DNA of 64,000 bases from Candidatus Woykebacteria bacterium. GTDB taxonomy: Bacteria > Patescibacteriota > Microgenomatia > Woykebacterales > RBG-16-39-9b. How positions within the stretch are numbered: position 1 is the first letter of the stretch; each line of letters begins with the position of its first letter. Made by a program: the position numbers and the translations under genes. The stretch lies in assembly GCA_040876265.1 (NCBI GenBank), contig JBBDPN010000002.1:170510-234509 (forward strand), written 5' to 3'. Below are positions 34,556 through 36,464 of the stretch, piece after piece. Below the pieces are notes generated by a model. That model made no database searches and was not told where the DNA came from. It saw only the letters and a program-made list of their open reading frames with translations.

Positions 34556-36322
34556 ATGGGAAACATCCGTAATTTTTCAATCATCGCCCATATTGACCAT
34601 GGCAAATCCACGCTCGCGGACAGGCTCTTAGAAATTACTGGAACTATCAAAAAAGAAAACTTGTCACCCCAGCATCTCGATCAGCTTGATCTTGAACGGG
34701 AGAGAGGCATTACAATCAAACTCGCACCAGTAACGATGATTTACAAAGGTTTCACCCTTAATCTCATTGATACACCCGGTCACGTCGATTTTTCTTACGA
34801 AGTGTCACGCTCACTTGCGGCTGTTGAGGGAGCTGTTCTTTTGGTGGATGCCACAAAGGGAATTGAGGCCCAAACCCTCGGTAATTTCTTGCTCGCGAAA
34901 AACCAAAATCTAAAAATAATTCCAGTTATAAATAAAATTGATCTTCCAAACGCTCAAGTTGAAGAGGTTGAAAAGCAATTGGTTGAAACCGCCGGATTTC
35001 AAAAAAGTCAGATTTACAAAGCTAGTGCTAAAACTGGCGAAGGCGTAGAAAAATTACTGGGAAAAATTATTGAAATTGTCCCTCATCCTTCCGGAAAAGA
35101 GGAAAAACCATTTCGGGCGCTGATCTTCGATTCATTCTACGACCAATTTAAAGGGGTCATAGCTTATGTACGCGTTTTTGATGGGAAGATAAAAAAAGGC
35201 GAAAAAGTGGAATTTTTTGGGGTTGGCAAAAGCGTGACAGCGGAAAGCCTTGGCCAATTCGCACCAAGTTTAGTCGAGAGAGGAACACTGCGCGCGGGAG
35301 AAATTGGCTGGATAGCAACCGGACTAAAAAATGTCGAATACGTAAGAGTTGGCGATACTATTACAAGGCTTGATAAAAAAGCCGAACCCATCCTGGGTTA
35401 TAAAGAGACAAAACCTTTTGTCTTTGCTGGGGTTTTTCCAGTAGATAGGGATGAGTTCCCAGCCCTCAAAGATGCTCTGGAAAAACTGAAATTAAACGAC
35501 GCCGCTCTTCACTACGAGGCAGAAAACTCACCCGTTCTTGGATTTGGTGTCCGGGCCGGGTTTCTTGGACTCCTTCATATGGAGATCGTGCAGGAAAGGC
35601 TGGAGCGAGAATTTGATTTGGATCTGATCCTCACCTCACCCACGGTTCCTTATAGATTAGTAAAAACAAACGGTGAAAAGCTGGAGATCTCAAATCCTAG
35701 TTCTTTCCCCTCGTCCCCCGTGATAAAGGAAATAAAGGAACCTTGGGTAAAAGGGAGCATTGTAAGTTTGCAAAATTATTACGGGCCGATCTCCCAACTG
35801 CTTTATGATCATAGGGCGGCGATCACGGACGCTGAGTATTTTGGAGATAAGGTAAGGGTTTTAGTTCAGCTGCCTCTGGCCGAAATAGTGTCTTCTTTTT
35901 ACGATAAGCTCAAAACTGTATCGTCCGGATTTGCAAGTTTCGACTATGAAATCGGTGAGTTTAAGTCCATAGATGCGGTTAAGTTGGATATATTGGTTGC
36001 TGGGGAGAGTGTAGATGCCCTGTCCCAAATTGTAGTGAAGGACAAAGCTTACAAGACAGGGAAAGCTTTGGTTGAACGATTAAAGGATGTTATCCCTCGC
36101 CAAAATTTCGAGGTTTCCCTCCAAGCTGCGATCAGTGGGAAAATAATCGCCGCTGAAAAAATCCCCACTTTCCGAAAAGATGTCACTGCCAAACTTTACG
36201 GTGGCGATAGGACTAGAAAAGATAAACTTCTTAAAAAGCAGAAAAAGGGTAAGAGTCGTATGAAGATGGTCGGTAAGGTATTAATACCGCAGGAGGCTTT
36301 TCTCTCTGTACTTAAGATTTAG
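34556..36322 (+). CDS. lepA: elongation factor 4 (LepA)
   Basis: G-domain [22 protein letters not shown], NKID. LepA C-terminal domain. 588 aa. Confidence 0.9.
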   Translation: [588 protein letters not shown]

Positions 36323-36464
36323 TAGAAAGTCGTATAGCAACCCCCGTACCTCAAAACTAAAGTTTTTCAGTACGCTTGGTTGCTGCGACCACTTCGTGGA
36401 CTAGAAAATGGTCGGCCGCGTTCAAATACCCCAAGAGGCTTTCCTATCGGTTCTAAAAGTTTAA
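36266..36464 (+). repeat. diverged ~57-nt direct duplication of the lepA 3' end with an 85-nt spacer carrying the 21-nt motif; the downstream copy is an intact 18-codon mini-ORF (36408-36464)
   Basis: ATGGTCGGTAAGGTATTAATACCGCAGGAGGCTTTTCTCTCTGTACTTAAGATTTAG versus ATGGTCGGCCGCGTTCAAATACCCCAAGAGGCTTTCCTATCGGTTCTAAAAGTTTAA. Peptides [18 protein letters not shown] versus [18 protein letters not shown]. Confidence 0.65.

Follow-up and report, generated by a model that had tools for sequence, protein, structure and literature searches.

The lepA locus and its second 3' end

We analysed 64,000 nucleotides of a Candidatus Woykebacteria contig, referred to as the window. It contains an intact lepA gene (Table 1), whose product was 100% identical to the NCBI entry for translation elongation factor 4 of Candidatus Woykebacteria in a database comparison and has the precomputed Pfam domains GTP_EFTU, EFG_C and LepA_C. 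The last 57 nt of lepA (36266-36322) have a second copy at 36408-36464, which runs from ATG to TAA over 18 codons. A sequence-only reading had reported this duplication, and it was confirmed here with z-scores of 12-17: the LepA C-terminus matched the downstream region at the protein level with a score of 79 (z = 16.7), and the flanks of the repeat element at this locus, termed element E, gave z = 12.4 when compared as DNA. Among all long ORFs of the window lepA was the only one with a strong match between its C-terminus and the region downstream. The identity of the two ends was 40/57 nt or 70%, lower than the about 75% read earlier, and 74% over an extended comparison of 23 codons.

Table 1. 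Position of the lepA ends and of the copies of element E in the window
Feature	Position	Strand	Basis
lepA (elongation factor 4), intact, 588 aa	34556..36322	+	ORF list, translation
Functional lepA 3' end, homologous to the relic; includes copy 1 (36266-36322)	36254..36322	+	codon-by-codon comparison
3-nt linker TAG from lepA stop to relic start; boundary uncertain by 2-3 nt	36323..36325	+	sequence
Relic left arm AAAGTCGTAT, coding ..S R M (first two bases)	36326..36335	+	8-mer and register
Element E, 68 nt (AGCAACC...GTGGACTA)	36336..36403	+	covariance-model match, 82 bits, E-value 3e-19
Relic right arm (G AAA ATG GTC ... GTT TAA), contains mini-ORF 36408-36464	36404..36464	+	sequence comparison
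Second full E copy, overlapping infB end	46994..47066	+	covariance-model match, 75 bits
E copy with two extra nested hairpins inside the 3' motif	15194..15271	-	covariance-model match, 47 bits
Diverged E copy	22046..22134	-	covariance-model match, 32 bits
Three degenerate tandem E-like units	11250..11446	-	sequence, alignment

The window comes from a metagenome-assembled genome, and the sampled community probably included related lineages, which would leave room for a chimeric assembly in which two Woykebacteria strains or species are joined at the end of lepA. However, the Logan assembly of run SRR27977662 (L081) was 100% identical over 7,767 nt, duplication included, and the 302-kb NCBI contig and the 36-kb Logan contig agreed base for base. 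Because two assemblies agree across the duplication, an assembler artefact is unlikely. At the would-be junction the copies have at most 8 identical bases in common, too few to mislead an assembler, and the same architecture was present in unrelated contigs and genes (see below). Thus a chimera is barely conceivable.

The homology of the second copy reaches further to the left. The left arm AAAGTCGTAT matches AGAGTCGTAT of lepA (36252-36261), and the exact 8-mer AGTCGTAT is common to this arm and to lepA 36254-36261. Between the left arm and the remainder of copy 2 lie 68 nt. Removal of 36336-36403 in silico joined 36328-36335 to 36404-36464; the rejoined arms read AGT CGT ATG AAA ATG GTC and the lepA end was in frame again. 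The relic comprises the last 22 codons and the stop of a lepA allele; its break falls within a Met codon, behind the second base. With element E kept in place the lepA frame reads ..SRIATPVPQN*, i.e. it stops after nine codons within E, and a frameshift is introduced in addition, so that an E-bearing lepA would lose 20 conserved C-terminal residues. The ATG of the mini-ORF is LepA's own Met codon and its stop is the old lepA stop, and the in-frame TAG ahead of this ATG (36402-36404) consists of the last two bases of E and the first base of the relic. As judged from these codons, the mini-ORF is a 3' leftover of a second, diverged lepA allele and not an independent gene.

Structure and distribution of element E

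The 85-nt spacer following lepA consists mostly of one 68-nt copy of E. The hairpin and the 21-nt motif that had been noticed in this spacer were both found, and both belong to E, which contains 20 nt of the motif; it is built as a long hairpin with interruptions, behind which lies the conserved 3' motif TGCGACCACTTCGTGGACTA. A covariance model was built from 32 copies, 30 of them from other contigs and two from the window, including that of the lepA spacer. The lepA copy aligned with the 31 others with compensatory changes in 10 of 18 predicted pairs, and its folding gave a z-score of -3.5. The size of E ranges from about 37 to 90 nt. Its 20-nt 3' motif is, by design of the search, invariant across the sampled copies of the subfamily; metagenome contigs contained >120 exact matches to it, and some of the long ones had several. 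At least five copies are present in the 64 kb of the window and more in related Woykebacteria loci. Thus E is small, non-coding and multi-copy within and across genomes, in the manner of a MITE.

The ends of E share only TAG..CTA and have no further terminal inverted repeat. At lepA, one well-resolved site, a target-site duplication was not seen, as exact removal of 36336-36403 restores the codons; a model with a TA duplication leaves the frame 1 nt short. As to a mobilizing partner, none of the ten window ORFs that were scanned was a transposase gene, no ORF bracketed by halves of E, as in an autonomous element, was found within 6 kb of any copy, and E was absent from viral contigs. E had no Rfam match. 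Rfam 15 at gathering thresholds yielded one tRNA only in the window, and at E-values up to 10 the region 36200-36600 gave one chance-level match to algC, outside E. Text searches of the literature returned no published description. The family therefore appears to be unrecorded, and we regard E as an element of CPR bacteria that is non-coding, present in many copies and apparently mobile. Assignment to an integron attC site or to a group II intron domain V-VI fragment was rejected because core motifs do not match and an Rfam hit was lacking.

The stop codon of infB (47011-47013), identified as the IF-2 gene by Pfam, lies inside the second full copy of the window. The diverged copy is located 8 nt past the stop of a convergent UvrD/PD-(D/E)XK helicase-nuclease gene (Pfam), and its 3' hairpin is altered in a compensatory way to CTAGGCA/TGCCTAG. 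In the tandem E-like units the covariance model matched at 11381-11417 and 11315-11351; a glycosyltransferase gene runs into the first unit with its 3' end and takes its stop codon from there. We rejected this gene as a second case of gene-end duplication, since what follows are three tandem E-like units with the ORF ending in the first. Likewise, a CRISPR-like array near 11.3 kb was rejected because the tandem units are degenerate and the spacers similar.

E clusters shortly past the ends of genes and does so in either orientation, with 55 copies behind a stop codon on their own strand and 63 facing that of a convergent gene. In addition, 19 open frames of at least 100 aa span the E motif, 11 of them in the LRPLRGL (or LQPLRGL) frame. 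The hosts of in-frame copies identified by Pfam or BLASTP were MiaA (IPPT), Obg, PrmC, leucyl aminopeptidase (M17 peptidase), a NUDIX protein and a UvrD-like helicase; a further host is a protein with a UvrB-like sequence pattern. In-frame E adds the conserved peptide ..RSLRNS..QYSRALRPLRGL.. to these proteins. E is thus tolerated inside genes where the reading frame stays open. Because the host ORFs are always open and continuous across E, translation of the element rather than its removal is indicated.

Divergence of the two lepA ends

The two lepA ends diverge by about 26-30%, almost solely at synonymous sites with position 3 near saturation. Codon position 3 holds 13 of the 18 differences (P = 8.5e-4), and the codon differences comprise 12 synonymous and 3 replacement changes, all of the latter conservative. 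The relic peptide equals the C-terminus of the LepA homologue P0010 (71% identical overall), the DNA of which is visibly diverged from copy 2 at synonymous sites. The synonymous bias together with the match to P0010 indicates that both ends evolved as working gene ends in separate lineages; 30% divergence with a coding signature is not acquirable by a duplicate in situ. An open frame after such divergence had been considered unexpected. The frame is indeed open, but the substitution pattern suggests that the divergence predates the duplication, and the puzzle would be solved because the differences arose while both copies ended functional lepA genes in different lineages. A manual count of GC at third codon positions gave 8/18 for each copy and does not discriminate between them, and a near-identical lepA end as donor or ancestor of copy 2 was not found in the collections searched. 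A diversity-generating retroelement was rejected, as the 17 mismatches span all base types and track codon position, not adenines.

A tandem segmental duplication of ~145 bp had been proposed for the locus. The direct repeat with its 142-nt offset, and a second copy with start and stop codon, would agree with a local ~142-bp duplication that later diverged and in which the mini-ORF was kept as a selected small protein. Yet, the repeat is confined to 57-69 nt of lepA-coding sequence, non-coding portions of the two units show no relationship, and Tandem Repeats Finder gave no array; the resemblance of the sequence after copy 2 to the start of the spacer, noted earlier, is at random level. Moreover, the second unit is broken by a family repeat absent from the first, related loci have no such mini-ORF after lepA, and ATG and stop are inherited lepA codons with an upstream TAG that stems from the end of E. 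Because divergence at position 3 is near saturation, a neutral duplicate with as much synonymous change would be destroyed. A local duplication is thus most improbable, and the sequence comparisons gave no evidence supporting a selected 18-aa peptide.

Gene-end relics around E elsewhere

The arrangement of an intact gene with a 3' relic behind it that E breaks or adjoins recurs at other loci. In L183 an intact lepA is followed by a 31-codon relic that is broken by E at a codon different from that in the window, 31 as opposed to 20 codons from the end, and bears one damaging Pro-to-Leu change. The relic of an aldolase-like gene in L187 is 84 nt long and 83% identical, with 11 of 14 differences at position 3. 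H+-pyrophosphatase-like relics, named from a C-terminal motif, are present in L178 and L148 and have 0 replacement changes. In these two genomes, which are ~74% identical, E occupies the same pyrophosphatase site, and the two relics differ from each other only synonymously (10/10 at position 3). Common ancestry of these two relics, if real, would imply purifying selection, which a model of neutral relics does not allow. On the other hand, the relic of L163 is decayed by frameshifts; decay of some relics is expected for neutral remnants of different ages. E-associated relics of tRNA-Gln, tRNA-Met, tRNA-Ile and tRNA-Arg adjoin intact tRNA genes. Of 119 E copies, 9 had flanking direct repeats at z > 9. 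Relics without E are rare, and no other gene of the window has one.

The upstream joint between intact copy and relic is located ~10-40 nt from E in the four protein-gene cases with a readable left arm, and tRNA relic arms measure about 7-20 nt. A fixed distance of ~10 nt from relic start to E was rejected, since the left arm in L148 is about 40 nt long. Linkers are short for lepA, the aldolase-like gene and tRNA-Gln, where the intact copy ends within 0-12 nt of its stop codon or CCA end, but they measure about 25 nt in L178 and about 27 nt in L148. Such regularity of the joints near E is not predicted by unassisted illegitimate recombination and hints at a mechanism tied to E.

The intact state of the relics in the window and in L178/L148, the solely synonymous differences between the pyrophosphatase relics and the conserved structure of E with its compensatory changes could be taken to mean that the relics are functional. 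E, with or without copy 1, would then be removed from DNA or transcript in some cells, and copy 2 would provide an alternative LepA C-terminus kept by selection. This is very unlikely in view of the copies inside genes, which always have an open frame and leave the host ORF continuous, and of the decay of other relics (Pro-to-Leu in L183, frameshifts in L163). E matches none of the Rfam ribozyme or intron families. Furthermore, an alternative tail has no obvious benefit, as no more than three residues, all conservatively replaced, distinguish the two LepA tails.

The lepA locus in related genomes

Comparison with related lepA loci showed a single lepA end in the relatives, but did not single out an ancestral copy, the best LepA match in the searched collections being 78% identical. 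Because these collections contain no closer relative, the native and the foreign copy cannot be told apart. The second lepA-end motif was absent from six related Woykebacteria loci and from the other genome-scan loci where it would be detectable; of the 85 records scanned, none but the window and its twin assembly have two such motifs. An E-free or unrepaired state of the locus was not seen in the collections searched. A LepA search of genome contigs returned only loci of other phyla with 51-56% identity, dominated by conserved motifs.

Each of the six related loci has a different gene content between lepA and hrcA. From the hydrolase gene to dnaK the identity of L085 and L086 is 90%, but in the lepA end it is only 78%. 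From these comparisons the interval is, as far as its sequence tells, a variable, recombining spot. The relatives are about equally distant from the window genome with 67-79% identity. There is a weak incongruence, which is not decisive, in that lepA pairs the window with L084 (77%) and murJ pairs L084 with L087. The 89-aa membrane ORF downstream (36496-36765) had no homologue anywhere and is thus not usable to trace a donor.

Origin of the arrangement

We consider it probable that copy 2 is what remains, as a pseudogene, of a lepA allele that E had split, and that the diverged ends were united by recombination. The two ends would have terminated working lepA genes in different lineages before they met, and recombination with DNA of a diverged relative would have brought them together. 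Because E in lepA would remove the conserved C-terminus, the genome carries an intact lepA 3' end, placed 3 nt before the relic. From the codon pattern we infer a horizontal origin of one copy; two orders of events would be consistent with the arrangement and differ in which copy is foreign and in how E and the replacement end became joined. Either an E-free allele overwrote the E-disrupted resident lepA to a point just upstream of E, or an E-bearing foreign fragment was placed behind an intact resident lepA. Only diverged (homeologous) duplications would be stable against deletion. For the tRNA cases disruption followed by repair is awkward, because E in a single-copy tRNA gene should be lethal.

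The sequence-only reading had also suggested a small element that supplied a replacement 3' end in the manner of attL/attR duplications. The repeat element, the intact upstream end and the displaced downstream end were all found. The attL/attR layout did not hold, as E lies within the displaced end with 8-10 nt of lepA at its left, and neither an integrase nor a shared core was present. A related model is a self-compensating mobile unit, in which E travels with a functional copy of the gene end that it displaces. Insertion would never inactivate the target, the carried end would be under purifying selection and the host end would become the relic. Such a unit would explain the tight link between E and relics, the purely synonymous divergence, the shortness of the linkers (0-12 nt) at lepA, the aldolase-like gene and tRNA-Gln, and the intact relics at the same pyrophosphatase site. 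It also has a precedent in prophage e14, which provides a replacement end for icd of E. coli and leaves a displaced icdC pseudogene, differing mostly synonymously (PMC13626634).

The order at lepA, i.e. intact end, E, displaced end, resembles that at icd, and islands integrating at the 3' ends of tRNA genes have the same insertion layout. But at lepA 8-10 nt of the relic lie upstream of E. E has 68 nt, encodes nothing, is without integrase and lies within the fragment, not between two att cores; the longest identity between the lepA copies is 8 nt. Generally, the position of E within relics, with 8-40 nt of gene sequence beyond it, is the geometry of a simple insertion and not of the att type. 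The lepA break point is not fixed and differs between the two genomes, the two pyrophosphatase cases have no common cassette sequence in linkers and left arms, and most E copies are without any gene end. In addition, neither a recombinase nor an autonomous partner was found within 6 kb of E copies or among the ten scanned ORFs of the window, and viral contigs had no E. Thus we regard the self-compensating unit as rather unlikely, and favor the view of an E-split allele united with a diverged end by recombination.

Relation to known systems

Rickettsia palindromic elements (RPEs) are described in a review as intragenic MITE-like repeats (PMC10969869, citing Ogata et al. 2000, 2002). E is like them in being short, palindromic, multi-copy and non-coding, and in occurring both between genes and in frame within unrelated conserved genes, where it adds a conserved peptide. 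The likeness drawn here is one of features, and there are differences: the host of E belongs to the CPR/Patescibacteria, E has about 37-90 nt as opposed to about 100-150 bp, and it possesses the 20-nt 3' motif and the covarying hairpin. To our knowledge, gene-end relics linked to RPEs have not been described.

Homology-facilitated illegitimate recombination, reportedly described in naturally transformable bacteria by de Vries and Wackernagel in 2002 and by Prudhomme et al. in 2002, combines one homologous with one illegitimate joint and can leave partial duplicates of the target, similar to the relics. However, it does not predict joints within tens of bases of E or right after a stop codon, and we know of no case in which it was tied to a specific repeat element.

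With REP/BIME sequences and palindromes derived from IS200/IS605, E has in common its small size, its imperfect palindromic structure with a short conserved head and its place downstream of genes. In contrast to these, no RAYT or TnpA was found within 6 kb of E copies or among the ten window ORFs. A REP sequence is as a rule restricted to one species, but the 20-mer of E recurs unchanged in many different contigs. As far as we know, REPs do not occur in frame inside genes at the frequency of E.

Significance

By itself the lepA relic is a small pseudogene, but it directs attention to a family of repeats, common among CPR genomes, that marks spots where ends of housekeeping genes and tRNA genes were replaced by diverged versions. 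For annotation, E explains odd insertions in conserved CPR proteins, stop codons supplied by a repeat, as in infB and the glycosyltransferase gene of the window, and tRNA-like fragments that could be miscalled. As a tentative proposal, which we hold to be possible but not probable, E would represent undescribed small mobile elements of CPR bacteria. Wherever an insertion is not tolerated, it would systematically come with a spare diverged gene end, either carried along or acquired by homeologous recombination that E directs, and E would serve as a vehicle or hotspot by which lineages exchange gene ends and tRNA genes. Selection on the element may then keep the displaced ends intact, as hinted at by the two synonymous-only pyrophosphatase relics. 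Should the link to E prove mechanistic, it would show by which route pieces of essential genes pass between these very small and supposedly streamlined genomes, and E would be a ready marker for such exchanges.

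Duplication of the lepA end

The window derives from a metagenome-assembled genome of Candidatus Woykebacteria (CPR/Patescibacteria), and the LepA encoded there was 100% identical to an NCBI protein named likewise from Candidatus Woykebacteria; the second-best match among 5.8 billion proteins was 78% identical. The final 57 nt of lepA recur downstream at an offset of 142 nt with 40/57 identities, and this copy 2 keeps ATG and stop. When the C-terminus of every long ORF of the window was compared with its downstream DNA, lepA ranked first with a score of 79 (z = 16.7), the runner-up scoring 35 (z = 4.4). 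The repeat is far from chance, and the site was identical over 7.8 kb in a separate Logan assembly of run SRR27977662. Thus the duplication with start and stop described in the sequence-only reading is real. A tandem segmental duplication of about 145 bp, with sequence after copy 2 weakly resembling the start of the spacer, had also been proposed. Both were discarded because no similarity was found past the lepA-coding stretch of the two copies and Tandem Repeats Finder reported no array at the site.

Window features (window positions)
Feature	Position	Strand	Remarks
lepA	34556-36322	+	
Left arm of relic, AAAGTCGTAT	36326-36335		directly left of E; matches lepA AGAGTCGTAT
E in lepA spacer	36336-36403		82 bits against E covariance model
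Copy 2, mini-ORF	36408-36464		
lepA-hrcA interval	36465-37862		89-aa membrane ORF (36496-36765) and hydrolase
E copy	46994-47066	+	covariance model; full copy across the infB 3' end; encodes IF-2's final six codons (MGSSVN) and stop
E copy	15194-15271	-	covariance model; two extra hairpins nested within conserved 3' motif
E copy	22046-22134	-	covariance model; 3' hairpin replaced by CTAGGCA/TGCCTAG; 8 nt past UvrD/PD-(D/E)XK helicase-nuclease gene
E copies	11381-11417 and 11315-11351	-	covariance model
Three degenerate tandem E-like units	11250-11446	-	about 65 nt each; 3' of glycosyltransferase gene
Gene pair	17365-18194	+	ribbon-helix-helix (CopG-type) and PIN-domain genes; looks like a toxin-antitoxin module

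The second lepA end is a relic split by a family repeat, E, and begins 3 nt past the intact end. Its left arm has the exact 8-mer AGTCGTAT in common with lepA, and joining 36335 to 36404 restored AGT CGT ATG AAA ATG GTC.., a 22-residue lepA end in frame. Because the rejoined flanks read in frame, E was delimited to 68 nt; it interrupts a Met codon between the second and third bases, and no target duplication accompanies it. In the lepA frame E reads SRIATPVPQN* and then shifts the frame; to judge from this reading, a lepA carrying E would be without the conserved final 20 residues. The mini-ORF takes its ATG from a Met codon of LepA and its stop from the former lepA stop, and the TAG just 5' of the ATG consists of the final two bases of E and the first relic base. 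Thus we rejected the view of the mini-ORF as a peptide gene. As an outline, the alternative proposal of a small element with a replacement 3' end was essentially correct, but the att-site mechanism it assumed was not.

Comparison of the two ends revealed 12 synonymous codon differences (TAG to TAA included) versus 3 replacements, all conservative (K to R, L to Q, I to V), and 13/18 base differences lay at codon position 3 (P = 8.5e-4). The 18-residue peptide of copy 2 is the exact C-terminus of a genuine LepA, P0010, which is 71% identical overall; two further homologues, P0005 and P0006, are one residue off. Coding constraint acted on both ends as they evolved. At third positions their divergence approaches saturation; after so long a neutral copy could no longer be recognised, so the two ends, judged by their codons, must have diverged while each terminated a working lepA.

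The E family

The 21-nt motif noticed in the spacer belongs to E; the window has three occurrences of it, all soon after a gene end. The corresponding 20-mer TGCRACCACTTCGTGGRYTA had at least >120 exact matches in metagenome contigs, and among the matches listed several lay on some of the long contigs. Alignment of upstream sequences showed the layout (A)TAG, covarying stem, variable hairpin, return strand of the stem, then TGCGACCACTTCGTGG-RCTA, in a long (about 70-90 nt) and a short (about 37 nt) class. Across 32 aligned long copies, pairing was kept through two-sided changes in 10/18 predicted pairs. The covariance model built from this alignment also detected copies in the related Woykebacteria loci L086 and L087. 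In diverged copies the small 3' hairpin is preserved by compensatory change, or extra nested hairpins are present. The lepA copy has 82% identity with one on an unrelated contig, against 70% with the infB copy of the same genome. Rfam had no match to E, and literature searches on the motif, the encoded peptide and CPR/Patescibacteria repeat elements turned up no description of it.

E lies just 3' of genes in both orientations: a same-strand stop codon is upstream of 55 copies, while 63 face the stop codon of a convergent gene. This argues for a DNA-level element over an oriented 3'-UTR RNA. E also occurs within long ORFs, mostly in one frame (..RSLRNS..QYSRA-LRPLRGL..), of MiaA, Obg, PrmC, leucyl aminopeptidase, NUDIX hydrolase and UvrD-like helicase (by Pfam or BLASTP) and of a protein with a UvrB-like sequence pattern. 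In lying inside long reading frames of varied proteins E behaves like Rickettsia palindromic elements, for which in-frame occurrence inside genes has been described (PMC10969869). In the window E supplies the stop codons of infB and a glycosyltransferase gene. No relic follows the infB copy. The glycosyltransferase gene ends (..KVTEKIIKS*) within the first of three E-like units, and VTEKIVK.. and KVTEKIVRN* recur in the units after it; the small 3' hairpins of the units vary in a compensatory way (CCAC/GTGG, CCG/CGG, GCTC/GGGC). We found no autonomous partner of E, no transposase among ten window ORFs scanned and no E copies in viral contigs.

As a separate observation, lineage-specific in-frame insertions of 13-48 aa occupy one and the same GTPase-domain point in several Woykebacteria LepA proteins (e.g. 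..KIQNSKSEYQNKSQIQNSNQKDYFDIRASTFGLEDSEF..). Insertions follow ..KLAPVTM.Y.. in P0018, P0029, P0031, P0034, P0041 and P0046, short ones lie elsewhere in other homologues (..GPSAGSGHG..), and P0004, P0060 and P0070 also bear insertions. Other repeat families may have inserted in frame at these places.

Gene-end relics around E

The lepA pattern recurs elsewhere. In L183 an intact lepA end is followed by a short E and a 31-codon relic, broken at a different codon from the window relic; differences from the intact end are mostly synonymous, with one damaging Pro-to-Leu change. Upstream, lepA of this contig is in two overlapping frames (7-507 and 500-934 of L183 1-934), which reflects a sequencing error or else a genuine frameshift. 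A gene in L187, named aldolase-like from sequence motifs, has its end and an 84-nt relic on either side of a short E (83% identity; 11/14 differences at position 3). In L178 and L148 an intact gene, called H+-pyrophosphatase-like from its C-terminal motif, precedes a relic that E interrupts and that encodes the identical IKVINIVALLLVPFL*; the differences from the intact end are 9-10 synonymous and 0 replacement. E breaks these genes, about 74% identical, at the same position, and the two relics differ at 10 sites, all third codon positions; either independent hotspot hits or selection on the relics would be at work.

Diverged fragments of tRNA-Gln, tRNA-Met, tRNA-Ile or tRNA-Arg with E in the D-loop or T-loop directly adjoin an intact tRNA gene (L108/L123, L206, L151/L181/L186, L157, L182, L165). 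Some are 5' halves that stop within the anticodon loop or ahead of it, others run from the T-arm to CCA. Their intact neighbours share, or probably share, their identity but are clearly different in sequence, which suggests that tRNA genes were replaced by diverged versions. Flanks formed a significant direct repeat (z > 9) in at least 9 of 119 distinct E copies, and some E-associated relics have frameshifts. Relics without E are rare; thus E and relic formation are linked, not coincident.

Origin of the relics

What lies between lepA and hrcA varies among Woykebacteria, and each of the six related loci compared has a different gene content there. L082 has 44 nt, L083 a 228-aa gene, L084 a VTT-domain gene, L085 a 243-aa gene and hydrolase, L086 hydrolase alone, and L087 367 nt and hydrolase. 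The 89-aa membrane ORF of the window had no homologue in 5.8 billion proteins. Identity between L085 and L086 is 90% over the stretch from hydrolase gene to dnaK and drops to 78% in the lepA end. This context, together with the closer match of the lepA copy of E to an unrelated contig than to the infB copy, supports an origin by recombination.

We infer that one lepA end was acquired from a diverged lineage through recombination. An E-free allele may have overwritten an E-disrupted resident lepA as far as the end of the homology, just before E; or a fragment bearing E may have been added 3' of an intact resident lepA. Near-identical duplicates would be lost through recombination between the repeats, and this would account for the finding of diverged pairs alone. 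Recombination does not account for the nearness of the joints to E and, for several of them, to the stop codon, for the awkward entry of E into a single-copy tRNA gene, or for the synonymous-only differences of the two same-site pyrophosphatase relics. These points keep alive an e14/icd-like view (PMC13626634), with a spare gene end coupled to the element. The lepA locus itself is a pseudogene relic, and its interest lies in the element that it exposed.
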